Origin: Alphaproteobacteria bacterium
GTDB taxonomy: Bacteria > Pseudomonadota > Alphaproteobacteria > Rs-D84
DNA length: 64,000 nucleotides
Direction of reading: 5' to 3'
Assembly (NCBI GenBank): GCA_015062445.1
Contig: SUUQ01000005.1
Coordinates: 1,668-65,667 of the forward strand
This document shows positions 3,713 to 46,445 of this stretch, piece after piece. The position numbers were made by a program, and so were the translations under genes. The notes below the pieces were generated by a model, which worked only from the letters and a program-made list of their open reading frames with translations, was not told the origin of the DNA and made no database searches. The number at the start of each line of letters is the position of its first letter. The stretch's first letter is position 1.

Positions 3713-4678
3713 TTGATTTATGAAAATATTCTATTCTGTACCCGCAATGTCCACAAGGGGGAAAAAGTGACACCTGAATTTGAACAGCGCTTATTATCCA
3801 TGCGCCCTGATGCGCCACGCACAGTTGCGTTGGCAAATGCGACCGATGTGCATGCGTTGGCATCATTAATTACAGCCCATAAAATGGGTTTTATAAATGC
3901 GATATTATGTGGGGATACGGCCGATGTTAAATCTGTCGCTGTGCGACATGACTTAGATATCTCGACATTTGAAATTGTGCACTGTGAATCCGATTTGGCC
4001 GCAGCGGATACGGCGGTATCCCTGGTTCGTGACGGTCATGCTGATATATTAATGAAGGGCCAAATTCATACCGCAGATATCCTAAGGGCGGTGTTAAATC
4101 GTGAAACAGGTATTCGTGGTGACGGGATATTGTCGCACGTTGCGGTTGTATATTCGCCTACATACCAGCGTCAGTTATTTATGACGGACATTGCGATGGT
4201 TATGTACCCCAGTTTAGAACAAAAGGTTGACCTGATAAGAAATGCGGTATCATTTGCCCGCCACATGGGTGTTGCGATGCCACGTGTTGCGCCCCTGTGT
4301 GCGGTTGAAACACTAAATCCGAAAATGCAGGCGACTGTTGATGCGGCGGCATTGCGCACGATGAATATTGATGGCAAAATCACAGATTGTATTGTATCTG
4401 GTCCGATTGCGTTTGACTTGGCGGTGTCCTCTGACGCTGTTCGTGCCAAGGGTTTTTCAGGGCCGGTTGCGGGTGATGCAGACATACTGCTGTTTCATAA
4501 TATCGAAGCGGGCAATAACACGATTAAGGCCATGGTAAATTTTGGCGATTGGTTTTTTGGTGGTGTTGTACTAGGGGCACGTGCACCGATTGTTATAAAT
4601 TCACGTTCTGATTCAGAACAATCGAAATTGTATTCAGTGTGCTGTGCATGTACGATGCGAAAATCACATGTTCGGTAA
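3713..4678 (+). CDS. Phosphate acetyl/butyryl-transferase family protein (Pta/Ptb)
   Basis: 'TVALANATDVHAL', 'DILMKGQIHTADILRAV' and 'GILSHVAVV' resemble the PTA_PTB family. The track start is TTG. A GTG at about 3766 with RBS 'aagggggaaaaa' is the more likely start. Confidence 0.65.
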   Translation: MIYENILFCTRNVHKGEKVTPEFEQRLLSMRPDAPRTVALANATDVHALASLITAHKMGFINAILCGDTADVKSVAVRHDLDISTFEIVHCESDLAAADTAVSLVRDGHADILMKGQIHTADILRAVLNRETGIRGDGILSHVAVVYSPTYQRQLFMTDIAMVMYPSLEQKVDLIRNAVSFARHMGVAMPRVAPLCAVETLNPKMQATVDAAALRTMNIDGKITDCIVSGPIAFDLAVSSDAVRAKGFSGPVAGDADILLFHNIEAGNNTIKAMVNFGDWFFGGVVLGARAPIVINSRSDSEQSKLYSVCCACTMRKSHVR

Positions 4679-5656
4679 TACGAATATTTCCATATTTGTA
4701 TCGCCATACAAAGAACTGCCTGTATACTTGTAAAATTTATCCAGCGGATTCACGACCGAGTATTGAACGTCATTATCCGTCTTGATTTGCAGTGTTCCAT
4801 TTTGTATGCGCGTTGTCATATCTGCATACCACACCCTGTTATCGTCTGATGTTTTTATATTCAGTGCTGGTGTTGTGTTTTTATATGGGTACAGTGTGAT
4901 TGCGACATCTGTTCCAGCATACAGTGTGCGTGTTGCTACACAGTCTGAAATATCATCTGCACAGTTTCCATATCCGCATGTTTGTGTGCCGGCTGGACAC
5001 GGGTATCGGGCCAGGTCGCCATCTGGTGACCAGTATCCATACCCAACAGGTTGACACGATTGATATGGTACGTATCCGGCCACCCATTTGCCGTTTCGTA
5101 CGTCATAAAATCCCGCATCGCACGTGACCAGTTGCAGTCCGTTGATGCAACCCTGTCCATTTAGTGATTCGGGGCCGTACACTGCATTGCCGTCTGTTCC
5201 ACTGATATAATAGCATGCTGTATAACCTGTGCCGTGCGAATTTGTTAACCTTGCCCCATTGTAATTTTCAGATGGTGGTTTGTACGGCCACACGGATATC
5301 CTGGTTAATATTTTGCTGCAATAACATTTTGTAATACTGTCATGTGCCCCAATTTTGGCATTGCTGGGATAGTCTATGATGCCAATGCATGCCGGCGAAG
5401 ACGGGCATCTTTTTAGATTGTTTCCTGATTGTTCGCCATAAACAACCGTATGTGTTTCTGAATAATATGCCCCAATAGAATCCGGTATTTGTTTACATGG
5501 TTGGCCGGCGGTGGATACAAAGTATCCTGCTTCACATACTGTTTTGCACAGACCGCTGTCATCAATTATTGAATATCCATCTGCGCAATCTGCGAACGCA
5601 TTTGATGTACACGTTCCCAATACCAGTACAAACATTAAAATTTTCATATGTATCAT
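4664..5656 (-). CDS. Secreted cysteine-rich protein (signal peptide MIHMKILMFVLVLGTCTSNAFA)
   Basis: The long ORF 4664..5815 is trimmed to the internal Met that begins a classic signal peptide. The mature part is very Cys/Gly/Tyr-rich with repeated 'C..GY' units. Confidence 0.6.
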   Translation of the reverse strand: MIHMKILMFVLVLGTCTSNAFADCADGYSIIDDSGLCKTVCEAGYFVSTAGQPCKQIPDSIGAYYSETHTVVYGEQSGNNLKRCPSSPACIGIIDYPSNAKIGAHDSITKCYCSKILTRISVWPYKPPSENYNGARLTNSHGTGYTACYYISGTDGNAVYGPESLNGQGCINGLQLVTCDAGFYDVRNGKWVAGYVPYQSCQPVGYGYWSPDGDLARYPCPAGTQTCGYGNCADDISDCVATRTLYAGTDVAITLYPYKNTTPALNIKTSDDNRVWYADMTTRIQNGTLQIKTDNDVQYSVVNPLDKFYKYTGSSLYGDTNMEIFVLPNM

Positions 5657-6048
5657 ATTGCCCCCCGTGCTAAGAATTAAAGAAAACCACCAAAAATTTG
5701 GTGGTCGGGAAGTTAGAAAAATCATAAACACGAATGACCCTGTGGCCTTTGGTAAAAACCTGTTGTATAGCCACAGCTTCCCGACACGCAATTGTCGGGA
5801 CAAAAACAACGGCACAAATGTGCCGACATTTTATGTCGGATTCAGTGCAATAAATCGCACTGCGTGTTTATGGGATTTTCTAAGTCCCGAATCCACATCC
5901 CTGCAGATTCAAAAAAATTATAGCACATTACCCCTTCAAACACAAGGTGAACCGATAAATATTAAAAAAGTGCCGATTTTTTTCTTGCAATTATGTGTAT
6001 CATGCCCCACAATCGTCTGGCCTTAAATTTTTATTAAAAGGAGAACTT

Positions 6049-14988: not shown

Positions 14989-15019
14989 ATGGGGACGAAT
15001 TGCGTCCCCTTTTTTTTAT
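14989..15019. terminator. Bidirectional rho-independent terminator (murG / convergent OMP gene)
   Basis: Hairpin 'ggggacgaattgcgtcccc' followed by a T9 run, with an A-run on the other side. Confidence 0.7.
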
Positions 15020-15567
15020 CAGAAACTGTAATTTATCCCCATCCCCAGGAAGTTAAATCCCCGGTTTAGTTCTGTAAAATCACCATTGGAAAAGTGCAGG
15101 GTAAAAATCTCGGCATGCAGTTTGTCTGTGAGATTTTTTCCAACAAAAACCTTTTCACCGAACACCAGTCTGCTTTCCACATATTTATCGCCACTGTCAC
15201 GCATATATGGTCCGATTCCTGCACCGACATACCAACCGCACCACGATGCCAGGACGACATCCCATGATACCCCCATTGCGCCAAATGATGTCCCATCTGC
15301 GCTGCGGTATGCGATGTTTTGCAGCAAACTGATATTAACACGTGCCGGCAACCGCAGTAATTTTATTGGTTGGCTGTACTGCAGCATGGCCAATGTCATT
15401 GGGTTGATATTCCAATCCCAGGGCAGTATCAGATGTCCCAAATCGCCCTGGCCAGTACCCTGGGCAATCCAGATGCCGAAACTGTTTTGTGTATTGTTTG
15501 CAAACATTGGGTTTGCATTTGCCCTGGTTGCCAGCATGCATGCGCATAAAATCAGAAATTTTTTCAT
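15019..15567 (-). CDS. Small outer-membrane beta-barrel protein, PagL-like (possible lipid A deacylase)
   Basis: Signal peptide, alternating amphipathic strands, and a C-terminal '...GINYSF' (terminal Phe). 'LHFSNG...E' near the C-terminus resembles the His-x-Ser-Asn(Gly) active site of PagL. Confidence 0.45.
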   Translation of the reverse strand: MKKFLILCACMLATRANANPMFANNTQNSFGIWIAQGTGQGDLGHLILPWDWNINPMTLAMLQYSQPIKLLRLPARVNISLLQNIAYRSADGTSFGAMGVSWDVVLASWCGWYVGAGIGPYMRDSGDKYVESRLVFGEKVFVGKNLTDKLHAEIFTLHFSNGDFTELNRGFNFLGMGINYSF

Positions 15568-15651
15568 AGGGAAATTATATTCACAAAAATGAACATTATC
15601 TATCAGACAGAATTCTTAATATTTGTTTGTCTTTTGGGCTTTAATTATTGT

Positions 15652-15679
15652 TTACAGAAATAAAAAAAATTGATATAAT
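15652..15679 (+). promoter_or_regulatory. Strong sigma70 promoter with extended -10 (TTTACA, 16-nt spacer, TGaTATAAT)
   Basis: TTTACA at 15652-15657 and TGATATAAT at 15671-15679. The 87-nt leader that follows contains a stem-loop 'ttccgatatttttcggaa'. Confidence 0.5.
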
Positions 15680-15765
15680 TAAACAAACAAGACATGCGGC
15701 ATGCATGTTGTAACGTCACAGAAAGGTTGGATTTCCGATATTTTTCGGAATACAGGGAGAGTTTA

Positions 15766-17910
15766 ATGAAAAGTCAAAAAATTGCAGATTCTGTCAAGAA
15801 TGCGGTCAGTACAGTATTTTTACTGGCTGGTGCTTTTTTTGTATGTTCAACATTGTTATCTATGCGTTCTGTTTTGGCGGATCCGATTGCGCCGGTTGAT
15901 GCAAATATGTTGTTGGGCCCCCAGTCTGGGCGGCGGGATGCAGCAACGGCACGTGCGCCTGGTCGGACCAGTCCACGAAATTCAGTATCACGTACGACTG
16001 TTGCCCGTACGGCTGTGCCTGGTGGTGTTACAAATGTGGCGCCTGCGGCGGGTCGTGGTAATACTGTGACGTCACGTGCGGTTACATCTCGTGCTGCGAC
16101 AAATCGTGCTGATGCGGCGGCGGGGCGTGTAAATTCAAATGGTTCACGTAATGTTGTTTCACGTAAAAGTGCGGTGACGACCCGTGCCAACGCGGTTGCG
16201 AACCGCGCTGTACGTGCCCGTACTGCAACAACAGACATGGCAAGTAATGCCCGTATTTCCCTGCAGGGCAGTGCGATACGCGGTTCCAAGACATCGACCG
16301 GTTCGTCATATTCCTATTTGACAGGCAAATTATACACTGGCAATTACTCAAATATCATCGATTCAACAACAGGTTTGATTTCAACAGACGCATTTAATAA
16401 TTGTATGGAAAGTTATTATACATGTATGGATGAAATTTGTACTGCGCGAAATGCGGCCCAACGTCGTTGTGCCTGTGCAGGTCGTGTTCGCGACTTTGCC
16501 GAGGCGGAAACAGCCCTGGAAACCGCCAACGAAGAATTGATTAAGGTTTCAGGTGAATTGGCCCTGTTAATTGCGAACAAGGGTAAAGATGTATCCGAAG
16601 CGTTCCAATTAACCGATGCGGAAAAGGTTATGAACTGTGTTTCCTGGCAAGATGTAACGAAAAAATACGGCATGGATTCCAGCGAGGCAATAGATTGGTG
16701 CTATAACCATGGAATTTATGGCAGTGGCGGCGGTCGTGTGTCGTCCTGTGCCCAGCCATCATATTGTTCTGAATCTGGCAATGATTTTGGCTTTAACGTT
16801 TCCAGTTTGGATGGCAGTGGTTCGGACATATTGGCATCCTTACAGGCCTGGGCTGATGCCAAAGAGCAAACATTAACGATTATCACCGATAACACAGACA
16901 CATTGTTGTCTGCGTTTGATAACCTGTCATCGGTTGTCAGTGGCATGGCCGGGATTGGTGGTGCATTATCTGTATCAGATACCTTGTCAGACTCGCTGGC
17001 AGAAACATGGGGGTATGAATTGTTTGAATATGCCCACAACAACGTTTGTGCCCGCGTGCTGGATTCGTGCTTTAACGGTATATTTGAGGCCTGCGGTACC
17101 CCGCCATCTGGCACCAAGTGCAGCAATGGTGCGTCCCAGTGTCCATATAATTACAACAGTCACATAACTGTAAACAACACTGGTACATACGAATTGAACT
17201 TTGTTAATGCGTCCAGTGGTTACAGTGCATCAAATTCTGCAACATGCTTTGGTTATACATCTGCATCTGGCGATCCGTATTCCAGTCTGCGTGGTCCTGT
17301 TGCAGATGCGCGCCGCAGCATTATGCAAAAATATGCACTGGACGCGAACGCCGACTGTGATGCGTATGGCGAACAGTTGCGTGCCACCGCGCAAAACATT
17401 GGTTATCAAAAGGTTGCCGCCCAACAGGCGCTGCAACAAAAGCGTCTGGAATTTGCCCGCGAAGAATCTGATTCTATATTATCCGCGGCGATTCAGGCCG
17501 GTACAAACTTTAACGAATGTATCAGTGAAATTTATGACTGTTATGAAACACAGTTGACATCAAATCCATCATGGCCGGATGCGCGTATCAGAACATATTG
17601 TTCCCAGATTGCGAACGTTCCGCATTGCTATGAAGAAATGATTTGTAATCCATCGACATCCCAGTTCAAAGCCGTTATTGACCAAGCGGATTCGACAAAC
17701 TGTGATAACACCCAGGATTACACAACAAACACATGTCGCAATATTGTTACATTGAACGAAATCCTGAACGGAACAGGTGCTGGCAATATTGGTTCTGACT
17801 TTGACCCATACACCAGCAAGGATTCTGCCACCATCCGCGAAGACTGTTTGATTGACAGCGGGGTTGACAGTATCCGAAAATGGTTTGAAGAAAATCGTCA
17901 GAAACAATAA
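15766..17910 (+). CDS. Large secreted protein: disordered Arg/Thr/Ser/Ala-rich N-terminal region plus a Cys-rich C-terminal domain (paralog 1)
   Basis: Start at MKSQKI with RBS 'acagggagag' and a signal peptide. Low-complexity segment 'SRAVTSRAATNRADAAAGRV...'. More than 30 Cys in the C-terminal 500 aa. 'C..Y..CMD..C...........RC.C' is shared with the next gene. Confidence 0.75.
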   Translation: MKSQKIADSVKNAVSTVFLLAGAFFVCSTLLSMRSVLADPIAPVDANMLLGPQSGRRDAATARAPGRTSPRNSVSRTTVARTAVPGGVTNVAPAAGRGNTVTSRAVTSRAATNRADAAAGRVNSNGSRNVVSRKSAVTTRANAVANRAVRARTATTDMASNARISLQGSAIRGSKTSTGSSYSYLTGKLYTGNYSNIIDSTTGLISTDAFNNCMESYYTCMDEICTARNAAQRRCACAGRVRDFAEAETALETANEELIKVSGELALLIANKGKDVSEAFQLTDAEKVMNCVSWQDVTKKYGMDSSEAIDWCYNHGIYGSGGGRVSSCAQPSYCSESGNDFGFNVSSLDGSGSDILASLQAWADAKEQTLTIITDNTDTLLSAFDNLSSVVSGMAGIGGALSVSDTLSDSLAETWGYELFEYAHNNVCARVLDSCFNGIFEACGTPPSGTKCSNGASQCPYNYNSHITVNNTGTYELNFVNASSGYSASNSATCFGYTSASGDPYSSLRGPVADARRSIMQKYALDANADCDAYGEQLRATAQNIGYQKVAAQQALQQKRLEFAREESDSILSAAIQAGTNFNECISEIYDCYETQLTSNPSWPDARIRTYCSQIANVPHCYEEMICNPSTSQFKAVIDQADSTNCDNTQDYTTNTCRNIVTLNEILNGTGAGNIGSDFDPYTSKDSATIREDCLIDSGVDSIRKWFEENRQKQ

Positions 17911-17920
17911 GAATAAAAAA

Positions 17921-17948
17921 CCATCCCCCGATTGGGGGATTTTTTTAT
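17921..17948 (+). terminator. Rho-independent terminator
   Basis: Hairpin 'atcccccgattgggggat' followed by a T7 run. Confidence 0.75.
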
Positions 17949-17998
17949 GAAAACATTTTTAATCATCAATAAAATATGATATAATTACCCAAACGGAA

Positions 17999-20146
17999 AT
18001 GAGAAAGTTATTAACTTGTTTTATATCACTGCTGGTTGCGTCACCGTATGCGGTTGCGGCTGATTCTGCTGTGTCCCGTGCATTGCCTGGGGCGACTGTT
18101 GGCACGACAACACAATCCGGCACATCACGTGTGGCTACGCGTGGCACGATATCGCGCAGTATACCCACAAATTCATCTAATGCTAATACTGATAGTGCTG
18201 AGCCAACATCTTCAACCAGTCGCACTGGAAATATAACACGTGCGCTCAGTGCGAATACTGTATCTAATTCTGCCCGCAGCAGTTTAGACGACACTGTAAG
18301 TACCGTTGGTCGTAACAGTCGTGTATCGTCTGCCAGTATCAACAGTAATCCAGTTGTTCGGCGCGCAGGGTTGGTTTTGCGTCCCTCTACAGCCGAGGTT
18401 GGCGGCCGCGCCACCATTGACGAAACAGGAACACAAACCGGTTCCAACATGGACGAAGCCATCAGAAAAGTGTCATCACGTGCGGCTGCAACTGCCACCC
18501 GTGAATCGATTGCAGATGCCACGGCTCGCCTGGAACAGACGGCTGCACTGAACCAATCGTGCCAGCAACAGTATAATGATTGCATGGACCAGTTTTGTGC
18601 TGTTATTGATGCCAACCAGGGGCGCTGTTCTTGTTCTTCAAATTTGTCGCGGTACACACGTGTTGAATCTGCGGTCAAAGATGCCAATACCCAGTTGAAC
18701 GAAGTTGCCCAGCGTATTCGCTATGTTGGCCTGTCTGCGGATGAAATACGCGCCATCATGAACGAGACCGAAGCCGAACAGGCGCTAAGTGGTGCTGTCG
18801 ACACATCAACCAACCGCAACATGTTGGAAGAAATCGAAGATTTAATTCGTGATCCTGTCTCAAACACATCGTATTCGGCTGACACATATACCAGTCTGGA
18901 TTTAGACCTGGATTTTTCATCAGATGCATCGGATTTATTTAATCTGGACTTTTTATCCAGTGGCACCAGTGGCAGTTTTTCTAACCTGCGTGGCACAGAT
19001 TTGTACAACGCGGCCAAGCGGCGTTGTAATTCAATCTTGACCCGTTGCAAGGGGGCAGGTGCCACCGTACAGCAGATAACAGGTAATTATGACCTGGCGA
19101 TTGATAAAGACTGTATTGCATACGAACAGGGGTTGACCAAGATGAATGAAACCCTGGTGTCGAATGTCCGCAGTGCGAATTTAATGTTGCAAAAGGCACG
19201 CCTGGCGGTATTGCAGAACAAAAACCAATACGATGCCAAGGGGTGTGTTGCGGCGCTGGAAAACTGTATGAAGGATGATATGGTTTGTGGCGATGACTAT
19301 TTCAAGTGCGTTGACCCAACCAAAAAATATATCGATGAAAATGGCGAAGTTGTATTGGGGCAAAACATATCGAATATCACCGCATTTATGTCTGGGTACA
19401 ATAACGCAATGATATCAGAAGATGGATATTTGAAAAATGCATACAGTGTCCAAAAAATATCGGATGACTCATGCAAGGCGGCCCCCACGGGTGATAAGGT
19501 CAAGATGGGGGGGAATGACGGTTCTTGCATGGTAAAGTATTTGTTGCAAAAAATTGGAACTGGTCAAAAGGTCACAGACGAGGGGCTCTGTCGTGCTGTC
19601 CTGGACAAGTGTCAGCGTTACACATACGATGCCAATGGCAATTATATGCCATACAATGACATTGTTGAAAACTATGTCCAGCGTGCCATGGTGAACATCC
19701 GTGCGGCCCAGTACAATATAATCTCGGACTATGCATCCACATGCATGGTTGATATTGCCAACTGTTACAACCAGCAGGTGACCCAGGTAAACGCATGGTC
19801 ATCAAATGCCAGTGTGACAAACATATACAATGTTATGCGTGGTGCGTGTCGCAATGTTGCGCTGACCTGTGCCTATGCGGTATTTGCCGCTGATACAACA
19901 AGTTGTCCAGCCAACAATGCCGATAAATGCATCAACAGCATATCTGAAATGTTCTATCAGTCATTATTGTGTCCAGACAATTCGACCTATGTTGCAACTG
20001 CGGTGGGTGCAGAGAACGTTGGCAATGGCCGTGAATATGTCAACGTCAATTGCAAATGTAATAATGGCTACGAGGCCTGGGGTAATGCGTGTCTGTTAAA
20101 ATGTACGGACAATAAAACACGCAATGCCTATGGTACATGCGAATAG
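17999..20146 (+). CDS. Large secreted protein: disordered Ser/Thr/Arg-rich N-terminal region plus a Cys-rich C-terminal domain (paralog 2)
   Basis: Signal peptide 'MRKLLTCFISLLVASPYAVAAD'. Region 'QSCQQQYNDCMDQFCAVIDANQGRCSC' is collinear with 'NNCMESYYTCMDEICTARNAAQRRCAC' in paralog 1. Extended -10 'TGATATAAT' at 17977-17985. Confidence 0.75.
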   Translation: MRKLLTCFISLLVASPYAVAADSAVSRALPGATVGTTTQSGTSRVATRGTISRSIPTNSSNANTDSAEPTSSTSRTGNITRALSANTVSNSARSSLDDTVSTVGRNSRVSSASINSNPVVRRAGLVLRPSTAEVGGRATIDETGTQTGSNMDEAIRKVSSRAAATATRESIADATARLEQTAALNQSCQQQYNDCMDQFCAVIDANQGRCSCSSNLSRYTRVESAVKDANTQLNEVAQRIRYVGLSADEIRAIMNETEAEQALSGAVDTSTNRNMLEEIEDLIRDPVSNTSYSADTYTSLDLDLDFSSDASDLFNLDFLSSGTSGSFSNLRGTDLYNAAKRRCNSILTRCKGAGATVQQITGNYDLAIDKDCIAYEQGLTKMNETLVSNVRSANLMLQKARLAVLQNKNQYDAKGCVAALENCMKDDMVCGDDYFKCVDPTKKYIDENGEVVLGQNISNITAFMSGYNNAMISEDGYLKNAYSVQKISDDSCKAAPTGDKVKMGGNDGSCMVKYLLQKIGTGQKVTDEGLCRAVLDKCQRYTYDANGNYMPYNDIVENYVQRAMVNIRAAQYNIISDYASTCMVDIANCYNQQVTQVNAWSSNASVTNIYNVMRGACRNVALTCAYAVFAADTTSCPANNADKCINSISEMFYQSLLCPDNSTYVATAVGAENVGNGREYVNVNCKCNNGYEAWGNACLLKCTDNKTRNAYGTCE

Positions 20147-20151
20147 ACCTT

Positions 20152-20186
20152 AAAAAATCCCCACAAAAATGTGGGGGGTTTTATTT
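20152..20186. terminator. Bidirectional terminator between paralog 2 and dnaQ
   Basis: Hairpin 'ccccacaaaaatgtgggg' flanked by an A-run and a T-run. Confidence 0.7.
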
Positions 20187-23030: not shown

Positions 23031-24332
23031 TTATTTTTTACCACCAGATTTTATAATATTGTACCATGTTTTTGTTGTTGCTTTGGTTTTATTCCACAGT
23101 GTTTTTACATCGCTTTTCAGCATGTCGCCCATTTTTGTGTCGATTGTCCCACCCAGTTCACTGGCGATTTTCATTGCATTCTTGGCCAGGTACATTGCGA
23201 TTGCAACAATCAACAGTGTGACAAAGAATCCAGGGTTATCAAACTGGGGGATTGTGTCAGTTGTTCCAAAATCAACAATGTATCCCAACAGTGCCACGCA
23301 AATTGCGATAACGATACTTAACACTATAAAGTGCAGGGCCGCATTAATAAACCGTGAAATTTGCGATTGCAGTGATTCTGGTTTAAATATTCCCATAAAT
23401 CCGTTAAAAATATCACCTGCGATACCCTTGTACGATGTTTTTCCGATTGTTTCTGCCAGTGCAGTAAATGGCAACATAATAATTCCCAAGAATAAATCTG
23501 CAATCACACCGAACGCAATAAACGCAAATCGCCAGCTTAGCATTATAAAGCATATAATCAGTGTTACACCGGCGGCGAATCCAAAAACACTGTTTCCGAC
23601 TGACATGCCAATCCATTTCCACCCCAGTGCCACCACGGTATAGCAAAACCCAGCCAATCTGGTTGGTACGCACATAATATTTGCAGCATGTTCTGCATCA
23701 ATCAGGTTTTCTGGCAACGTGTGATTTGCGGCATATTCATGAATTGCCCCGCATGTATCTGGCAGGTTAATTCCCGCCGTCTGTGTAATTGCATTCAGAA
23801 TTGTATCTGAAATGATTGTTCCCATTTGCAGTATTGGTGACATAACAAACATAAAAGTTTTTGCTGGTCCAATCATCAGAATGCCTGTCCAGACTGCGAC
23901 CATAACACCCCTTTTTACGATTTCCTTGATTTTGTCTTCTGGTTTACTTTGACCTGTGATGATTGTGTATGCTTCGAACCCAATCCAGAACCCGTATGCA
24001 ATGATAATAAACAGTATCACAAAGCGCACCAGTGAAGTGTCCAGCACATGTGCTACAAATGAAAACGCATTCATAAATGCCAGTCCAATTTTTGCTTCGA
24101 CGGGGACAAAGTCTGCCACGATTTGTTTTTGTGCATTGTCTTGGAAGTATTGCACATCATTGCCCAGTGTTTCTACAAATCGCTGGTGATTATTTTCTGT
24201 TGCCCATGTGCCGTATTCGCCAACATCTGCCATCGGCAGGTTTGATTCTGCACAGACCCCTGGCGACATCAGACAGATTGCCATCGCAATGACAGGCACG
24301 ATTTTTGATAAAAAATTTTTTATCACATTCAT
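23031..24332 (-). CDS. Polytopic membrane protein, member A of a 5-gene paralog array (VirB6/TrbL-like?)
   Basis: Signal peptide, at least 6 TM segments, Cys pairs in loops, and a Lys-rich C-tail 'KTLWNKTKATTKTWYNIIKSGGKK'. Its start overlaps the stop of the upstream gene. Confidence 0.6.
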   Translation of the reverse strand: MNVIKNFLSKIVPVIAMAICLMSPGVCAESNLPMADVGEYGTWATENNHQRFVETLGNDVQYFQDNAQKQIVADFVPVEAKIGLAFMNAFSFVAHVLDTSLVRFVILFIIIAYGFWIGFEAYTIITGQSKPEDKIKEIVKRGVMVAVWTGILMIGPAKTFMFVMSPILQMGTIISDTILNAITQTAGINLPDTCGAIHEYAANHTLPENLIDAEHAANIMCVPTRLAGFCYTVVALGWKWIGMSVGNSVFGFAAGVTLIICFIMLSWRFAFIAFGVIADLFLGIIMLPFTALAETIGKTSYKGIAGDIFNGFMGIFKPESLQSQISRFINAALHFIVLSIVIAICVALLGYIVDFGTTDTIPQFDNPGFFVTLLIVAIAMYLAKNAMKIASELGGTIDTKMGDMLKSDVKTLWNKTKATTKTWYNIIKSGGKK

Positions 24333-25819
24333 TACTTTTTACCCATTGCCTTGGAAATTTTTTCTGTTATTTGCACAGGTACATGCCATATTTTTTGTCC
24401 CAGGTCATGTATCCATGCACCAAAGTCAAACTGTTCACCTGTCGCGACATTTGCATTTTCGCCTGGTATCGGCAGTTTCACACCGCCCGCCGGCAACAGT
24501 TTATCGATTTTCGGACTGATTGCATAATAGTACAAACAGAACAGGCACACCATCATCAGCAAGAAATTCCATCCGTCTTTCATAAAATCGAATGCCCCCG
24601 GGTATTTTCTTTCTACTTCGGCCCGCCGTGCTGTAAAGCAGTTTTTGAATGCATCTTTATCCATTTCACCATTTGCCAGTGCGACCTGTTCACAGGTTTT
24701 GAAAACATTCATGACACTTAACGTTTGTGCATCTGGATTTTCTGGAACCTGGCCCATCATTGGGGGCAGTATTGCGCTGTAGCCGTCATTTGGACCTGGC
24801 ATAAATGTGTCTGCAGTATATGATACAGTTGCGTATATGACCAGTACTTTCAATGTGATTGCCACGATTCTTACTGCAGACGATATCAGCATCTCTAATG
24901 CCTTGCTGACCAGTCCGCTGGCCTTGGCCCAGGTTCCTTCAAATGCACTTGCCGCCAGCAGCAGTGGCATAAAAATGATTAAGAAAATTAACTTGAACAC
25001 CACAGACAATATTTGAAAGAATAAATCAAATCCGATAATCATGAACATTATCACCAATACCAATCCTGCAATCCATGTGAATGCGCCCCCGCCCATCCCC
25101 ATCCATGCATAGTTCATCATTGCAAAACCACCTGCGGCCCCGGCCAGCATAACAGAGTTTATATTTCCCATCACGCACATAAAAGGGTTCATAACCGGGT
25201 TCAGTATATCTGACGATTCTGTATTATGACCTGATGCCAACGCATTGCATTGTGCCGCATCTGTCACCCCAGTTGCCGCCATTGACAGTTCGGCCCCGAC
25301 ATACAGCACGGGCGTGATGGTGATTTGTGAAACGGTCTTCAGTGCATCTGTGCCGCCCATTCCCAGCGCCCCCATCAGAACACCAACAAATATGATTCTG
25401 ATGCCTTGCTTCCATATTTTTTCGAACCATGGGTGGAATTCAATTTTATGTTCCTTAGGTTCCAGTGTTGCTGTCTGCTTTGCGTGATTAAATATGTATT
25501 GTACGGTGTGTATAAAGATAAAAATACCGAACCCGATAACCATCAAAATCCACAGGTTGTCCACCATCAACGTCCAGAATTTTTCTGTTGCGCTGCCCAG
25601 TACACCGAATAAATCTGCGATATATCGACACAGGAAACATCCGTTTGCCGTTGCAATGTCGCCATTTTCAACACCTGCTGCGACCAAGAAATTATCCATG
25701 CTGGTATATGTTATTGCTGCCCCACCAATTGACGAAGATACATACCAAATCCCCAGCCCCAGTGCAACCAGTCCCATAACTATTCTGACAGCGATTAAGA
25801 TTAATTGTGCTTTTAACAT
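24332..25819 (-). CDS. Polytopic membrane protein, member B of the array
   Basis: About 10 TM segments. Shares the 'P(L/F)xxLxxxxFxGxW' TM motif ('PLLLAASAFEGTW') and a Lys-rich tail with its paralogs. Coupled TAATG-type overlaps on both sides. Confidence 0.6.
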   Translation of the reverse strand: MLKAQLILIAVRIVMGLVALGLGIWYVSSSIGGAAITYTSMDNFLVAAGVENGDIATANGCFLCRYIADLFGVLGSATEKFWTLMVDNLWILMVIGFGIFIFIHTVQYIFNHAKQTATLEPKEHKIEFHPWFEKIWKQGIRIIFVGVLMGALGMGGTDALKTVSQITITPVLYVGAELSMAATGVTDAAQCNALASGHNTESSDILNPVMNPFMCVMGNINSVMLAGAAGGFAMMNYAWMGMGGGAFTWIAGLVLVIMFMIIGFDLFFQILSVVFKLIFLIIFMPLLLAASAFEGTWAKASGLVSKALEMLISSAVRIVAITLKVLVIYATVSYTADTFMPGPNDGYSAILPPMMGQVPENPDAQTLSVMNVFKTCEQVALANGEMDKDAFKNCFTARRAEVERKYPGAFDFMKDGWNFLLMMVCLFCLYYYAISPKIDKLLPAGGVKLPIPGENANVATGEQFDFGAWIHDLGQKIWHVPVQITEKISKAMGKK

Positions 25820-27009
25820 TATTTGCTGTCCTTTTTATCGCCACCTGACACGATTGTTTTTCCAATTTTAACAGTTGTGTCGACCGCATCTTTGACCAGT
25901 GTTATCATGTCGTTTGCCAGTTGTTCACCCATATCTTTTTTCTCGGACACATCAAATGCCGCCAGAATCATTTTTGTGATTTGTGGAATTTGTCCTTGGA
26001 TATAGTTTAGCACATATACCAACACAATCGCACTCATAAACGTCATTGCCTGCAGGTTTTCTGTATTCAAATCCGCTTCGAATATTTGTCCTGTGGTAAT
26101 TGCGTTCATCAAGTCGGCTGCCGACGCATCTGGCGCAGAAAAGAATTTTGCGATAATGACCATAATGACTGTGTATGTCAGTACCACTGACCCCAACGTG
26201 ACAATTGCATTAATCAGATTTTTAATTTGATTAACACCGACCCCTGACCCCAGTTTTCCAATCCATTCTGGCACATGTTCTGCGCCTTTGAATGCGAATG
26301 TCACCAGCGAGATTGGAAAGAAAAACGCAAAGAAAGCCATCGCCACAATTGCATCTGCGAAATAGCAACAATATCTAAAGAACAGCTTAAAGAATCCCCA
26401 TGCTAAATACAGTCCGATAAAGAACAAAATAATATGTTTAATCAAACTACCTGGTCCCAACAGTGCCTGCCATGAAAATGCCTGGTCCATCATTGCGATT
26501 CCCAGTTTTATGTATGCCTGGAATTGTGTGATTGTTTTTTTCATCAACAGTATAATTTTGTCCCGCAGTTGTGGTCTGAAAAAACCATCTTCGGTCATTT
26601 TTTCTGGTTGGTATGTTACTTTTTCTTCGACCGCATCTGTGTCCATTTGTGTGATTGTCTGGGTGTATGTCAATGTGATTTGTGCAACTGGCTCAAACGT
26701 AATAGTTGTTAAAATCCGTGGCAGCATAACCCCCATCCCCATCAGCGCAATTGCGACAATGCCATTTATAAAAACTTTTTGAATTGATTTTTCATACAGT
26801 GTATCTGCGAAATCATTTTGGAAATTTTTCCAAATTGCATTAACCATGAATACTGCAAACAGCATCACAAACAGTACAACACAAATTTGGCTGAATGTGC
26901 CGTATATTTCTGCAGCTGCAACAGATATGATTTGAAACAGTCTGTCAAACACCCCACAGCCCCAACACTGCACTGCATTTTCCACCAAAGATGATGCGAA
27001 ATTATTCAT
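25819..27009 (-). CDS. Polytopic membrane protein, member C of the array
   Basis: Multi-TM; 'PISLVTFAFKGAEHVPEW' motif; Lys/Asp tail 'GGDKKDSK'. Overlaps its neighbours by 1 nt. Confidence 0.6.
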   Translation of the reverse strand: MNNFASSLVENAVQCWGCGVFDRLFQIISVAAAEIYGTFSQICVVLFVMLFAVFMVNAIWKNFQNDFADTLYEKSIQKVFINGIVAIALMGMGVMLPRILTTITFEPVAQITLTYTQTITQMDTDAVEEKVTYQPEKMTEDGFFRPQLRDKIILLMKKTITQFQAYIKLGIAMMDQAFSWQALLGPGSLIKHIILFFIGLYLAWGFFKLFFRYCCYFADAIVAMAFFAFFFPISLVTFAFKGAEHVPEWIGKLGSGVGVNQIKNLINAIVTLGSVVLTYTVIMVIIAKFFSAPDASAADLMNAITTGQIFEADLNTENLQAMTFMSAIVLVYVLNYIQGQIPQITKMILAAFDVSEKKDMGEQLANDMITLVKDAVDTTVKIGKTIVSGGDKKDSK

Positions 27010-28274
27010 TATTTTTTAATCCATCCTGCGGCGGTTCCGATTGCTTTTCCTGTTTTTTTGATGTTTCCCCAAATTGTGCCTGCGTCAGATTTTACACTGT
27101 TGTACAGTCCATCCATTCCGCCGCCGATATATTTCTTTAATTGTTCTTGTGTCTTGTCATAAATTTTGAACATCAAATACAGTGTTAATATTGCCGACAT
27201 CCATATCAAAGAATGTTGTCCAAAACCTGCGCCAGAATTTGCGATTTGTGGAACATTGCTGGCTGCACTGCCACCTGCGGCGACGACAAAAGTTGATACA
27301 TTTTCCATAAACAGTGCCCGTATAACTGCCAGATTTATACACAGCATAAATGCACACGCAATCATTGTCACGATTAATTGTTGCAGTGCCTTGGTAATGC
27401 CGCTGAATGCGGGCCAAACATCGAACCATTTATCACTGGGTTTTACAACATATGTCAGTACATAGAATGGATACAGAATTAATTGCATCCCGAAATTAAA
27501 TATCCCCTGGATAATCAGCAGTGCCATAAACAGATTGCTGCTGACGAATGTCAGTATTAAGATAATTCCTGTCACGATATTCATAAAATCTTGTCCGCCG
27601 TGCGGTATCAGTGTCATCAAACCTTTCAGTCCCTGGGTCAGACTATCAAATCCCCGCTTGATAATTTGATTGTTTGCATGTGACAGTTCTGATACGGGCT
27701 GTACCAGAAATTCACACGATTCCTGTGAAATCCAATCGTGTGCCAGAATGTCCGGTGGGCACTCAACTTTTGGTGGCTGTGCACCTGCTGCGTTAATTTG
27801 TTCTGTGATGTGACTGGTGTAAATCGCCCCCAGTTCCAAGAATGGATTAACCAACCACTGTGTTAAAAACACTGGTTTCATCTGCAACAAAAACAGTGCG
27901 GCAATAATTGCCCGCCCGCCTGATTTTAATGTGTTTTCGACAATCTGTGTCCCGGTAATTTTTCCATCGTAAATTTCGCCGCCCCCTGATATTCCCAGAA
28001 ATGACAGCCACTGTTTTGGAAAGTACATTTTTACCAGCGAAATCGTAATTGTAATCCCCAAGAATATCCAAACAAACGCATAGATAAAACCATTGCCGTT
28101 TCCGACAAAGAAATCATAAATTCCGGTTGCTACCAACATCATCGCATCCAGTACCATTGGAACGAACGGCGCCAGGTTCAGTGAATCGATGATATTTCCT
28201 GCATATGCCAAATCTGGGCACAGCATTGCCACCGCCAAACACAACCCAAAAAAAACTTTTTTCAGTAAATACAT
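27009..28274 (-). CDS. Polytopic membrane protein, member D (first gene of the 4-gene operon)
   Basis: Signal peptide 'MYLLKKVFFGLCLAVAMLCPDLAYA'; 'PFYVLTYVVKPSDKWFDVW' motif; tail 'KKTGKAIGTAAGWIKK'. Confidence 0.6.
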   Translation of the reverse strand: MYLLKKVFFGLCLAVAMLCPDLAYAGNIIDSLNLAPFVPMVLDAMMLVATGIYDFFVGNGNGFIYAFVWIFLGITITISLVKMYFPKQWLSFLGISGGGEIYDGKITGTQIVENTLKSGGRAIIAALFLLQMKPVFLTQWLVNPFLELGAIYTSHITEQINAAGAQPPKVECPPDILAHDWISQESCEFLVQPVSELSHANNQIIKRGFDSLTQGLKGLMTLIPHGGQDFMNIVTGIILILTFVSSNLFMALLIIQGIFNFGMQLILYPFYVLTYVVKPSDKWFDVWPAFSGITKALQQLIVTMIACAFMLCINLAVIRALFMENVSTFVVAAGGSAASNVPQIANSGAGFGQHSLIWMSAILTLYLMFKIYDKTQEQLKKYIGGGMDGLYNSVKSDAGTIWGNIKKTGKAIGTAAGWIKK

Positions 28275-28342
28275 TCTCTGTTTTTATTTTTATCTTTTCA
28301 ATTATATCACATTTTGTGCAAAATATGATATACTTAAAAACG

Positions 28343-29632
28343 ATGAACCGATTAAAAAAATTTTGGATTGTATTTTTATCGTTCTTGCCATGGGCGGCGG
28401 GTGCGGCTGTTCCGTTATTGGTTGGCGGCATTGCAGGTGTCGGGGTTTTGGCGGGATTTTCGATATATCGCACAGCGGTTCCGGTCAGTCCAACAGATGC
28501 GTATCAGTTTTTTTCCAGTTGTTGGACATGCCAAATGTTTTCTGACATCATGGCAACAATGTCTGGTATATTGCCCCGCATTTATCATGCCTTGGGTGAA
28601 ACGATTGTTCCGTTCACAATAATGTTAACGGCGATATGGCTGGCCTGGAAATTGGTCAGCAATTTGATGAACGGGAAAATGGAAGATGGTTGGTCATTGA
28701 CCAGTACATTTGTGAATCACATGGTGCGACTGGGGATTGTTTGCATATTTTTATTGGCACCCCTGCCACGGTTGATATCAGATGTTGCGATTACACCGAT
28801 TTTCAATATTGGCATGTCGCTAAATCGTGTGGTTGTACATGACGATAATTTTGACATGTGTGTTATATCTACTGCGTTGGCAGATCCTGTGTCTGTTGAT
28901 TCGGCTGCGGCGGATTCTGGTGCATTTTCACCGACCATGCGTCATAATCTGGCATGTGAATTGGCGGGCATTCATCAAATGACAGGTATGGGCATGACAG
29001 TTGGCTGGACGATGCTGAATATGGCATTTGATGCAGATTATATGCACAAGATTTTATGGGATGTTCCTATTTTTCCAAACATCATATTGTTTTTTTCGGG
29101 TTTATTGATAATGGTGCTGTTTTTTGCGGCATTGCTGCCCATACCGATATACTTTTTAGAAATTTTTATCACATTATCACTGGATTTGGTAATGTTGCCG
29201 TTTATGTTGTTGGCATGGTTGTTTCAGGGCTGGCAGATATCTTTGGCGGGTGCGGGCAAAACGATTCGTGGGATTATTGACGATGTAATAAATGCGACCT
29301 TTGCGTTGGCGATAACAGGTGTGTTTGTCACGTTTGCGATAATGTTCCTGGATGCGATATTTGGCGATTGGAATGGGGTATCTGTTTTATCGACTGCCTT
29401 AACTCAAAACGATTCGAAATTTATGATGGATGCCTTGATGATGCGCAATGACAGTTTGGTAACCATTATATTGATGGGTATATTTATTGCGATGTTTATG
29501 ATAATGATACCTGCATTATCCAAGACCTTGTTCAACGTACAAATGTCGACCCGATTCTATGACACGACCAAAAAGAACATTGAAATTGTATGGGAAAACC
29601 TGAAAAAGTGGTACTCCGCAATAAAAAAATAA
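28343..29632 (+). CDS. Polytopic membrane protein, member E (divergently transcribed paralog)
   Basis: Start chosen at MNRLKKFW (signal peptide). The track ORF 28205.. overlaps member D. 'PFMLLAWLFQGW' motif; tail 'ENLKKWYSAIKK'. Confidence 0.6.
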   Translation: MNRLKKFWIVFLSFLPWAAGAAVPLLVGGIAGVGVLAGFSIYRTAVPVSPTDAYQFFSSCWTCQMFSDIMATMSGILPRIYHALGETIVPFTIMLTAIWLAWKLVSNLMNGKMEDGWSLTSTFVNHMVRLGIVCIFLLAPLPRLISDVAITPIFNIGMSLNRVVVHDDNFDMCVISTALADPVSVDSAAADSGAFSPTMRHNLACELAGIHQMTGMGMTVGWTMLNMAFDADYMHKILWDVPIFPNIILFFSGLLIMVLFFAALLPIPIYFLEIFITLSLDLVMLPFMLLAWLFQGWQISLAGAGKTIRGIIDDVINATFALAITGVFVTFAIMFLDAIFGDWNGVSVLSTALTQNDSKFMMDALMMRNDSLVTIILMGIFIAMFMIMIPALSKTLFNVQMSTRFYDTTKKNIEIVWENLKKWYSAIKK

Positions 29633-31230: not shown

Positions 31231-31258
31231 TTCCCCCAAATGGGGGGATTTTTTTTGT
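31231..31258 (+). terminator. Rho-independent terminator
   Basis: Hairpin 'cccccaaatggggg' followed by a T8 run. Confidence 0.75.
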
Positions 31259-31326
31259 TGATATATTTTTCTGCTTGCGTGCGATTCGTGATTTGTTCTA
31301 TGATTGCATCAGGAAGGAAAGGAATT

Positions 31327-32640
31327 ATGCGTCATTTAACATTCAGTATATTGGCTGTACTGTTGATTGTGCCTGGTATTGCATCGGCACGAATGCCGGT
31401 TGTAAATGTATCATCTGGTGGTGTGTCTGCACGTTCTGCATTTGGCGAAGATGTCAGTGCATCTGTATCTGGCGGTACATTGCCATCTGTTGCGTCGCCG
31501 TCGGTATCGACACGTACACGTTCGGTTGTTTCACGTCCTGTGACTGCATCGGTTGCACCGGCCAGGACCGTGGACCGTGGGGAACAGTTTGTTGCATCGA
31601 ATGATGTTTTGGTTCCTCGCCGCCCCAGCAACGATTTATGGGCGAAAAGCGATGGTGCCTTGCGTATGCCCAGCCCCAGTGAATTTTCTGTTATTCGTTC
31701 TGACGGTGTTTTGCCCGAAGAAAGCTTAGATAACGCATATGTTGCGTCTGTTTCGGCACGTCCGGCTGCGCCTGTTGCATCGATTTCTGAGTCTGTGTCG
31801 GAACTGGATAATCAAATTGCACGTTTGATTGAGTTGCAAAAGCATGCCAATGATAATGCACGTTCTGTATCGCCCCGTGTTGCGCCTGTGGCACCGGCGA
31901 TGCCGGCTGCACCTGTTGTTGCAGCTGTGGAACCTGCTGTGCCGGCTGTGGTTGATTTGCCTGCGTCGCCCCGTGTTGCAGATTCTGATGTATCGCTGCG
32001 TCGATTGGTTGTTCCGATGTCAGATGATGTTGTTGTTCGCAGTGTTGAAAAAAATATTTCGCCACGTATTGCTGCGGTTCGTGATGATATGACCAAGATG
32101 AGTCCTGCAGAACTTCGTCGTGCATTCAGAAAGACGTTTTTATCAGAAAACAAACATCTGTCCACATATTCGATTGATGATGGCTTTGATGTTGCCAGTG
32201 ATATGTCTGCATCTATCGAAGGTTTTACAGCCCGTCGTGATTTGTCTGAAACTGGTGGCATTCGTCCGTTGGAAATCAAGATTAAATTTCGCAACGAAGA
32301 TTCTGCATTATCACGTGAAAACTATAATTTGTTAACTGAATATGCCGGCATTGTGGTCAGCAAACCAACCCGTGCCATCCAGGTTGCCATCCCCCAGGTA
32401 ATGACCACTAACAAGGATGCTCGCAAATTGGCGGCCCGCCGCCTGGCGATTGTTGAACAGGTTTTAACCGACAACGGTGTGTCCCAGCAGCGAATTGTGC
32501 CGGTTTTATCCAGTCGTGACGAACAGGGATTTGTATTGCGTATAATCTCTGGTGATCAGTATGAAACCCTGACCCAGCAACAACGTGATATATTTGGTGA
32601 TACGATTAATAAAAAGACCTATAAAAGTATGTCGTGGTAA
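31327..32640 (+). CDS. OmpA-family protein with a long Pro/Ala/Val-rich linker
   Basis: Signal peptide 'MRHLTFSILAVLLIVPGIASA'; PAV-rich repeats; the C-terminal 'ARKLAARRLAIVEQVLTDNGVSQQRI' resembles the OmpA_C peptidoglycan-binding motif. RBS 'ggaaggaaagg'. Confidence 0.55.
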   Translation: MRHLTFSILAVLLIVPGIASARMPVVNVSSGGVSARSAFGEDVSASVSGGTLPSVASPSVSTRTRSVVSRPVTASVAPARTVDRGEQFVASNDVLVPRRPSNDLWAKSDGALRMPSPSEFSVIRSDGVLPEESLDNAYVASVSARPAAPVASISESVSELDNQIARLIELQKHANDNARSVSPRVAPVAPAMPAAPVVAAVEPAVPAVVDLPASPRVADSDVSLRRLVVPMSDDVVVRSVEKNISPRIAAVRDDMTKMSPAELRRAFRKTFLSENKHLSTYSIDDGFDVASDMSASIEGFTARRDLSETGGIRPLEIKIKFRNEDSALSRENYNLLTEYAGIVVSKPTRAIQVAIPQVMTTNKDARKLAARRLAIVEQVLTDNGVSQQRIVPVLSSRDEQGFVLRIISGDQYETLTQQQRDIFGDTINKKTYKSMSW

Positions 32641-45506: not shown

Positions 45507-46445
45507 GTGAGGGCTCTTTTTTACAGTGCAATTTTTTCGATTTTATGCACACCGTGTTTTGCAGACGTATTGCCATTGGATGATGCGTTGCGTTCCACAT
45601 ATCGTGCGTGTGTTGGTATTGACGACCAGTTAAACGATTTGCGTCGCATGGCGGGCATCAACACTGCGATAACTGCGGCTGGTACTGCGGCAGGGGCTGG
45701 TGCGACTGTGGTTGGTATTGTTAAAACGTCCAAGGATAAAAAGGCAGAATCGCTAGAGGCCATATTAAATGAAATCAAAGAAATGACACAAAATTCTGCC
45801 CCGATGACCACAGATGAAATTGACAGATTTATGTTTGAATTTAATGCGTACTATGAAACTGCGCTGAAAAGCACTGATTCCATACAATCAGAACTGGACA
45901 AGACGGTTGCCCAGTCTAAAAAGTTGGGTAATTGGCGAACAGGTTTACTGGCGGGCGGCACAGCCACCAACATTGCCGGTGCGGTTATTGCCAGTTCGAA
46001 CAAGGTTGACGGTGATATTTTTGTTCAAATAGAGCTGTGTAAAACATCTGTTGCGAATTTGCGCAACTCGATTATCCAGGCCCGTCTGAACGGCCAAGAC
46101 ATAACCGAGGCCGAGGAAATCATCCGTTTATGTGGCGAATATGATTATGCAGATTTGTCGAAAATTAATACCAAGGCCCGTGGTGCGACAATTTCGTCTG
46201 CGATTGGTGCGACCACTGGTGCGGTTGGTACGGTACTGTCGGCCAGTGCGAATTCCCAGAAAGTGCGTGACGATAATACAGACACGGGCAAACATCGTGA
46301 AAAGAATCTGAACACGGCATCGAATATAATGGCGGGTGCGACGACTGCGGCCTCTGCGACGGCGACCATATTTAATGCGACCCAAATTGGTGCGATACGT
46401 CGTGTATCAGACATTGCAGAAAAATGCACGGAGGTATTGAAATGA
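45507..46445 (+). CDS. Secreted helical Ala/Gly/Thr-rich protein (312 aa)
   Basis: Signal peptide 'MRALFYSAIFSILCTPCFA'. Repeated 'AGTAAGAGATVVGIV'-type segments. Its stop overlaps the next start (ATGA). Confidence 0.6.
   Translation: MRALFYSAIFSILCTPCFADVLPLDDALRSTYRACVGIDDQLNDLRRMAGINTAITAAGTAAGAGATVVGIVKTSKDKKAESLEAILNEIKEMTQNSAPMTTDEIDRFMFEFNAYYETALKSTDSIQSELDKTVAQSKKLGNWRTGLLAGGTATNIAGAVIASSNKVDGDIFVQIELCKTSVANLRNSIIQARLNGQDITEAEEIIRLCGEYDYADLSKINTKARGATISSAIGATTGAVGTVLSASANSQKVRDDNTDTGKHREKNLNTASNIMAGATTAASATATIFNATQIGAIRRVSDIAEKCTEVLK

Follow-up and report, generated by a model that had tools for sequence, protein, structure and literature searches.

OmcB, the cysteine-rich protein of the chlamydial outer-membrane complex, combines a signal peptide, a basic N-terminal region, and about 24 conserved cysteines in its large C-terminal part; it is beta-rich and is a conserved envelope protein of a host-dependent bacterium. 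TraN is the cysteine-rich outer-membrane protein that stabilizes mating pairs in F-type conjugation and mediates surface contact between cells, and the S-layer proteins of Gram-negative bacteria are abundant, acidic, and usually free of cysteine. Here we analyze two neighboring genes, designated A and B, in a 64,000-nucleotide (nt) stretch of DNA (contig SUUQ01000005.1; the window hereafter) that belongs to Candidatus Enterousia (Alphaproteobacteria, order Rs-D84). We tentatively propose that A and B encode disulfide-stapled helical envelope or surface proteins, in which a basic tail acts as a tether and the outer end serves in contact or adhesion. The A/B family is new, and is of a familiar general kind, the cysteine-rich exported envelope or surface protein. 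OmcB is plausibly its closest functional analog, as a disulfide-locked envelope protein with a polyanion-binding tail; TraN is more remote, and neither is homologous to A or B. The two genes are as follows (aa, amino acids).

15766-17910, + strand: gene A, 714 aa; signal/anchor at residues 1-38, basic disordered region at residues 39-205, and acidic, Cys-rich core, predicted helical, at residues 206-714.
17999-20146, + strand: gene B, 715 aa; signal peptide at residues 1-20, basic low-complexity region at residues 21-180, core at residues 181-657, and EGF-like module at residues 658-715.

The original prediction had placed two open reading frames at exactly these positions, and both were recovered there on the + strand. 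Most of the original description holds, apart from the cysteine count, the motif, and the closeness of the paralogy. For gene A, 15766 is the best start; it comes after AGGGAGAG in the sequence, and the resulting 714-aa product is 100% identical to a database protein of that length.

The mature proteins contain 24 (A) and 28 (B) cysteines, both even numbers and both below the more than 30 of the original prediction. Cysteine makes up 4.7% and 5.2% of the cores of A and B, respectively, versus 0.99% in 30 other genes of the window. In alignments of 40 orthologs per family, each cysteine is kept in at least 88% of the sequences, and all but two are kept in 100%. Across 150 diverse cluster representatives, 18 of the 28 cysteines of protein B are near-invariant. 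Moreover, variable cysteines of B are gained or lost jointly: residues 492 and 510 are both present in 31 cases and both absent in 68, and residues 636 and 644 are both present in 27 and both absent in 28. This paired gain and loss, together with the even counts, is the pattern expected of disulfide partners. Neither protein contains a CxxC or CxxCH motif, which makes heme, zinc, other metal, or thiol-oxidoreductase readings unlikely.

A and B share a cysteine framework, C-x6-C-x4-C-x9-C-x-C (A residues 213-237; B residues 188-212), followed by a predicted helix. A common framework followed by a helix had been predicted as 'C..Y..CMD..C........RC.C'; the framework and the helix hold, and the spacing does not, since the real one is a residue longer. 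C-x6-C pairs recur, with four in A and eight in B. Among orthologs, the helix that follows module 1 is 98% identical in A (residues 251-275) and 97% identical in B (residues 226-250). The modules of the two proteins are as follows.

16387-16635, + strand: module 1 of A (residues 208-290), C-x6-C-x4-C-x9-C-x-C and then the most conserved helix.
18494-18790, + strand: module 1 of B (residues 166-264), recognized by BLASTP, hhalign, and profile search.
17314-17541, + strand: module 2 of A (residues 517-592), a 'DC.AY...LQ.(K/A)RL...C-x6-C' segment.
18974-19333, + strand: module 2 of B (residues 326-445), recognized by profile search.
19970-20143, + strand: EGF-like C-terminal module of B, CKCNNGYEAWGNAC..., with beta-hairpins in the AlphaFold2 model.

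AlphaFold2 models of the two proteins, built from 38- and 40-sequence alignments, are mostly helical, with mean predicted local distance difference test (pLDDT) scores of 50.8 and 45.0 and, at this low confidence, almost no beta structure outside residues 660-715 of B. The EGF-like module is the sole part of the B model with pLDDT of 77-86. A C-x-C-x2-G-Y-x4-G-x-C pattern was found by eye at B residues 685-698, and neither B nor A matches a Pfam EGF or Ephrin_rec_like model. Assignment of a fold from these models was dropped because the pLDDT values are too low.

Scans of A and B against Pfam (E <= 1), NCBIfam, and PHROGs returned nothing above threshold, and Pfam gave only sub-threshold, unrelated matches. 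The absence of a recognizable enzyme motif, as originally predicted, is supported by these scans, which contained no enzyme domain. Sequence-profile searches of the PDB with A and B also gave no match. No autotransporter or inverse autotransporter beta-barrel translocation domain was detected in A or B by Pfam or in the low-confidence models, and no Sel1 or TPR repeat, as in the Helicobacter cysteine-rich/Sel1-like proteins, was matched in Pfam or NCBIfam.

The likeness to OmcB is one of architecture only. As in OmcB, a signal peptide and a basic N-terminal region precede a C-terminal part with about 24 conserved cysteines in A and B, and OmcB and the A/B pair alike are conserved envelope proteins of host- or partner-dependent bacteria. 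Unlike OmcB, A and B have no sequence match to Chlam_OMP6 or DUF11 in the Pfam scan, are predicted to be helical, carry a much longer disordered tail, and have relatives with EGF-like C-terminal arrays. TraN resembles A and B in its length of about 600-700 aa, its export, and its more than 20 conserved cysteines. However, A and B have no Pfam TraN match, their secondary structure is predicted differently, and no conjugation or type IV secretion genes lie near them, where the neighbors are cell-wall, DNA-repair, and unclassified membrane genes. The acidic core and strong promoter would fit an S-layer protein, but the cysteine content of 4.7-5.2% does not. Protein A also recalls TonB and TolA in its succession of a conserved hydrophobic segment, a long low-complexity spacer, and a folded C-terminal domain; in contrast to this likeness, neither A nor B shows homology to them, A has a plausible signal-peptidase site, and the signal of B is cleavable and ordinary. 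Finally, the likeness to EGF-like or ephrin-receptor-like domains and Flg_new repeats is limited to the variable C-terminal appendage; no match exists for the basic tail or for the conserved core, which spans about 500 aa.

Both proteins begin with a hydrophobic N-terminal signal sequence, in agreement with the signal peptides of the original prediction. In B, this is an ordinary cleavable signal peptide that is poorly conserved; predicted cleavage between AVA and ADS leaves the mature N-terminus ADSAV. The hydrophobic segment of A is longer and unusually conserved (65-80% identity among orthologs), and the plausible signal-peptidase site that follows it, between VLA and DP, gives a predicted mature N-terminus of DPIAP. 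Judged by eye, neither protein has a canonical lipobox ([LVI][ASTVI][GAS]C): LLTC at residue 7 of B is too near the N-terminus, and FFVC at residue 27 of A is non-canonical, with an invariant Cys27.

A basic low-complexity region follows in both proteins (A residues 39-205: A 18, S 12, R 12, T 12, V 9, G 9, and N 8%; B residues 21-180: S 16, T 13, A 12, R 10, and N 8%). Its net charge is +17 in A, with an isoelectric point (pI) of 11.9, and +5 in B (pI 11.3). The remaining residues are acidic in both proteins (A, 509 aa with a net charge of -33 and a pI of 4.4; B, 535 aa with a net charge of -16). A low-complexity region of 150-200 aa had been predicted, and its composition was confirmed. The claimed periodic pattern '(S/T)R.(A/V)(T/A)' was not, as its exact form occurs twice per protein; spacing of Arg at 4-7 residues is significant in the A tail (shuffle p = 0.0002) and is not significant in the B tail (shuffle p = 0.22). 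Among the 40 orthologs per family, the low-complexity region is the most variable part of the proteins and contains indels. This composition is retained by a set of 115 diverse relatives (A 17, T 14, S 12, R 10, and V 9%), where the median tail length is 177 aa and the median net charge is +9. This conservation implies that the tail is a real, selected feature and not an artifact of the reading frame, the concern attached to the original prediction. No DNA tandem or slippage-prone repeats were found under the low-complexity regions of A and B, and phase or antigenic variation by repeat slippage was rejected for this reason.

Tails of this type also occur on other proteins. The protein encoded at 31240-32640 (+ strand), which has a weak OmpA-like C-terminus (Pfam E = 0.027), contains a Ser/Arg/Val/Ala-rich stretch like the A/B tail after its N-terminal hydrophobic segment, and an R/S/T/A/V-rich stretch of the same kind precedes a beta-barrel-like protein in a related genome. 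The presence of an A/B-type tail on OmpA-like and beta-barrel-like proteins suggests that the R/S/T-rich stretch is a periplasmic tether or linker typical of the lineage. Just after the signal peptide, B also contains a '(V/I)SRxIP' motif (residues 26-30; 18074-18088). Ser26 and Arg27 are invariant in 38 orthologs within an otherwise variable region, and the consensus built over the diverse family retains it as 'sR..p'; the motif may serve in sorting or processing.

Another form of tethering was considered for protein B. Ala-Asp linkage to peptidoglycan is known in Alphaproteobacteria (PMC10787603), and B could be attached covalently in this way, as are outer-membrane proteins of Brucella and Agrobacterium, since its predicted mature N-terminus, ADSAV, starts with these residues. 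However, AD follows the cleavage site in only about one-half of close orthologs and, among diverse relatives, in 15 of 123, and the DPIAP N-terminus predicted for A lacks the motif. Because the motif is not conserved, we rejected this link, which we regard as highly improbable.

We asked how A and B are related to each other and to database proteins. BLASTP aligned A and B over no more than about their first 260 residues (26% identity over 263 residues; E = 6e-12), and hhalign gave 97.4% probability over 93 columns. Using sub-profiles built from diverse B relatives, the module 1 profile of B matched A residues 208-290 at E = 1.6e-18, and the profile of B residues 325-445 matched A residues 517-592 at i-E = 2.5e-8 and matched all 40 family A sequences; module 1 was likewise recovered in every sequence of family A. 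Profile searches detected no similarity in the regions between and after the two modules. That two shared modules alone can be detected implies that A and B arose by an ancient, rather than a recent, duplication. The original designation of A and B as paralogs is thus upheld for a distant relationship confined to two modules, and of 80 related loci no more than about 25 have the two genes in tandem.

Database homologs number more than 1000 for each protein; all are unnamed or hypothetical, and none has a Pfam domain. An exhaustive profile search with the B alignment returned 706 clusters (50% identity) at E <= 0.001, of which 228 were at E <= 1e-30, with members of up to 2338 aa; 270 species-level genomes encode a B relative. 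The related loci come from metagenome-assembled genomes labeled Candidatus Enterousia, 'Alphaproteobacteria bacterium', or 'uncultured Rickettsiales', obtained from ruminant, horse, chicken, and human gut samples. A cluster look-up of ten distant relatives gave no informative names, and literature searches on Enterousia and Rs-D84 turned up no description of proteins A and B. In the same set of genomes, cross-species identity to the window copies is 64-66% for A and B, compared to 66% for UvrD, 78% for the DnaQ-like protein, and 81% for MurG. Divergence at the level of UvrD implies that A and B are not fast-evolving, and both are single-copy core genes of the genus rather than members of an expanding, variable family. 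This result does not support the originally predicted family of antigens or effectors that evolves by duplication, nor do the invariant cysteines and the lack of slippage repeats; the proposed comparison of variability across species showed divergence like that of UvrD.

The same data bear on whether the cell releases A and B as soluble effectors or toxins that act against host or competitor cells, with a disordered N-terminus for translocation or uptake, as in colicins. The disordered N-terminus, long helices, and variable C-terminus superficially recall bacteriocins. Yet A and B are slow-evolving core genes, differ from colicins in their Sec signal and many presumed disulfides, and lack a catalytic or toxin domain in the Pfam, NCBIfam, and PHROGs scans as well as an adjacent immunity gene. 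Moreover, the C-terminal extensions of their relatives are structural repeats and not toxin modules. We consider this role very unlikely.

These extensions provide indirect support for the surface exposure claimed in the original prediction. Longer relatives of both families carry C-terminal extensions of EGF-like modules and of furin- or ephrin-receptor-like and Listeria-Bacteroides repeats, and the EGF-like C-terminal module of the B type is repeated many times in longer relatives. Among 30 long members, seven have Flg_new matches (best E = 6.9e-41) and two have Ephrin_rec_like matches (best E = 2.2e-6), and the repeat arrays reach about 1500 aa. EGF-like, ephrin-receptor-like, and Flg_new repeats are typical extracellular display domains. 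Their position on the C-termini of relatives implies that the C-terminal end of the conserved A/B core probably faces outward.

This observation also weighs against a possible, if rather doubtful, alternative, namely that A and B are purely periplasmic scaffolds that, like OmcB and OmcA, stiffen the envelope through intra- and intermolecular disulfides and are not exposed at the surface. Such a role would fit a Sec signal without a recognizable outer-membrane translocation device, the conservation of A and B at the level of housekeeping genes, their location beside the cell-wall genes for PBP1a, mraY, ftsW, and murG, and the presence of similar R/S/T tails on proteins whose N-termini are expected in the periplasm. 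However, Flg_new, ephrin-receptor-like, and EGF-like arrays of up to about 1500 aa, as found in relatives, are of a kind typical of extracellular display, A and B have no sequence relation to Chlam_OMP6 or DUF11, and genes for peptidoglycan synthesis are present, so that a wall substitute is not obviously needed.

Expression signals were found for both genes, as listed here.

15651-15679, + strand: promoter of gene A; TTTACA, 17-nt spacer, and TG-extended TATAAT, with 11 of 12 consensus positions.
17977-17985, + strand: extended -10 promoter of gene B, TGATATAAT, read from the sequence, with its end 13 nt before the ATG.
17923-17940, + strand: intrinsic terminator of gene A; 7-bp stem with 5 G-C pairs, then TTTTTTT.
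20158-20177, both strands: bidirectional terminator common to gene B and the convergent dnaQ-like gene, detected on both strands.

The element TGATATAAT is present at 15671-15679 for gene A and at 17977-17985 for gene B, and the promoter blocks of the two genes are 81% identical over 27 nt. TGnTA(T/A)AAT occurs 70-99 nt upstream of the start codon in 21 of 21 orthologous gene A loci, and an extended -10 element lies upstream of gene B in 76 of 77 orthologous loci, at 10-19 nt from the start in 72 of the 77. Because these elements are kept at fixed positions across loci, they are not chance matches. Both the extended -10 promoters and the separate terminators, seen as hairpins with T runs at 17923-17940 and 20158-20177, agree with the original prediction. 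Genes A and B thus appear to be monocistronic, each with a private promoter and terminator, and the perfect extended -10 elements at conserved positions together with these terminators suggest high expression of both. The expected leader of the gene B transcript is just about 6-8 nt and lacks usable Shine-Dalgarno spacing; conservation of the short distance from the -10 element to the ATG in 72 of 77 loci suggests that gene B mRNA is near-leaderless. The 80-nt leader of gene A has no Rfam match and a fold z-score of -0.99, and a regulatory RNA at this position was rejected on these grounds. Antisense open reading frames of 171 aa (15774-16289, - strand) and 242 aa (17959-18687, - strand) run across the low-complexity parts of the A and B coding sequences, and look like by-products of biased codon composition and not genes.

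We return to the proposal that A and B are disulfide-stapled envelope or surface proteins. According to this tentative model, they would be strongly expressed, Sec-exported structural proteins of the Candidatus Enterousia cell envelope. After export, the acidic, mostly alpha-helical core would be locked by 12 (A) or 14 (B) disulfides, many of them formed by the recurring C-x6-C pairs, whose two cysteines would share a helix face. The N-terminal tail, polycationic and disordered, would bind an anionic polymer of the envelope, either peptidoglycan or lipopolysaccharide, and the C-terminal end would point outward, where in related species it bears EGF-like, ephrin-receptor-like, or Listeria-Bacteroides arrays. 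The likely role would be that of a protease-resistant surface scaffold or an adhesin that contacts partner cells or host surfaces. From the export signal, the architecture, the invariance and the paired gain and loss of cysteines, the conservation of promoters, and the C-terminal domain fusions, all of which the analysis shows, we infer the disulfides, the tethering, the surface exposure, and the adhesive role.

In favor of this proposal we count the even and conserved cysteines, their paired gain and loss, the lack of CxxC, and the bipolar charge (in A, +17 in the tail and -33 in the core). We also count the kept composition of the tail and its occurrence on OmpA-like and barrel-like proteins, the promoters and terminators, the C-terminal fusions, the constant pairing of gene A with a PagL-like gene, and the suspected partner dependence of the lineage, together with the many hypothetical membrane-bound proteins ascribed to it (PMC12306168). 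Several observations weigh against it. The A and B proteins of the window have little or no C-terminal repeat array themselves, and no route across the outer membrane is evident, as A and B lack a beta-barrel, a lipobox, and an autotransporter domain. The basic tail is not universal, since some distant relatives start with acidic, Glu/Asp/Tyr-rich N-termini, and the term 'helical' is tentative because the models have mean pLDDT values of only 50.8 and 45.0. Moreover, disulfides would be required in a lineage that is anaerobic and has no respiratory chain (PMC12306168).

The genes around A and B include the following membrane protein genes.

15019-15567, - strand: pagL-like outer-membrane beta-barrel gene with a PF09411 (PagL) match; divergent neighbor of gene A.
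23031-28274, - strand (four in tandem), and 28205-29632, + strand (one divergent): five polytopic membrane paralogs of 396-495 aa.

The pagL-like gene lies directly upstream of gene A in every A-bearing locus examined, including those in which A has parted from B and murG. The five polytopic paralogs are related to one another by BLASTP (pairwise E of 2e-13 to 1e-3) and have Lys-rich tails, such as '...WYNIIKSGGKK'. They gave no match in Pfam or NCBIfam, including TrbL/VirB6, and a VirB6/TrbL (type IV secretion) identity was dropped for this reason and because no secretion ATPases are encoded nearby. In most related loci, the five-gene array is found close to gene B. In four loci, B is directly beside the array, in the same orientation in three of them, and the intervening dnaQ and uvrD genes are absent.

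This linkage raises the alternative that A and B are parts of an undescribed, contact-dependent uptake or secretion apparatus across the envelope, together with the five-paralog array (23031-29632) and the PagL-like barrel. The array members are distant paralogs outside any known family, and the lineage, which has no standard transporters, may obtain metabolites from partner cells. In addition, the 97-98% identity of the helix after module 1 among orthologs suggests a fixed protein partner. By contrast, A and B are monocistronic genes with separate promoters and terminators, distant family members occur in unrelated neighborhoods, and no ATPase or other marker of a secretion system is nearby. 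Since B and the array are usually separated by housekeeping genes, the linkage may be plain synteny at the genus level. On balance, participation of A and B in such an apparatus is unlikely. It is slightly less probable still, and would be new to science, that A, B, the PagL-like barrel, and the five-paralog array form an envelope-spanning contact apparatus. If this were true, the apparatus would serve transporter-poor gut alphaproteobacteria with reduced genomes for attachment to partner cells, from which they would draw metabolites.

Other exported cysteine-rich proteins were noted in the window and in a related genome. The gene at 4664-5815 (- strand) encodes an exported protein with 17 cysteines, a signal peptide, MKILMFVLVLGTCTSNAFA, that ends before DC, and EGF-/ephrin-like 'C..GY......C...C..GY' modules; this protein has no Pfam or PHROGs match. 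A 1046-aa protein encoded at 46424-49564 (+ strand) has a signal peptide and hydrophobic segments, with about 27 cysteines among the first ~420 residues and two copies of an acidic block, 'EIPEPEVILDDI(V/I)IDDTIEP', and matches no family. In the related genome L087 (5986-9158, 13383-15455), the genes that flank the pagL-A pair encode two further exported Cys-rich proteins (804 aa with 33 cysteines and 250 aa with 9 cysteines) and two beta-barrel-like proteins with a C-terminal Phe; an R/S/T-rich stretch extends the N-terminus of one of the latter two.

Enterousia, of the order Rs-D84, has genomes of 0.75-1.0 Mb (PMC12306168). It has no tricarboxylic acid cycle, no respiratory chains, and no standard transporters for uptake, and a dependence on partner cells is suspected; many hypothetical membrane-bound proteins with a role in transport or cell interaction are ascribed to it (PMC12306168). 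Candidatus Enterousia is widespread in the guts of humans and livestock. Among its conserved genes with strong-looking promoters, A and B rank with the largest, and they represent an unannotated family of at least 706 sequence clusters, which makes them concrete candidates for the surface of this organism. As such, A and B could be used as targets for antibodies or for sorting by fluorescence in situ hybridization, and as starting points for studies of attachment to partner cells. They also raise the biochemical question of how an anaerobe without a respiratory chain builds proteins that apparently need 12-14 disulfides each.

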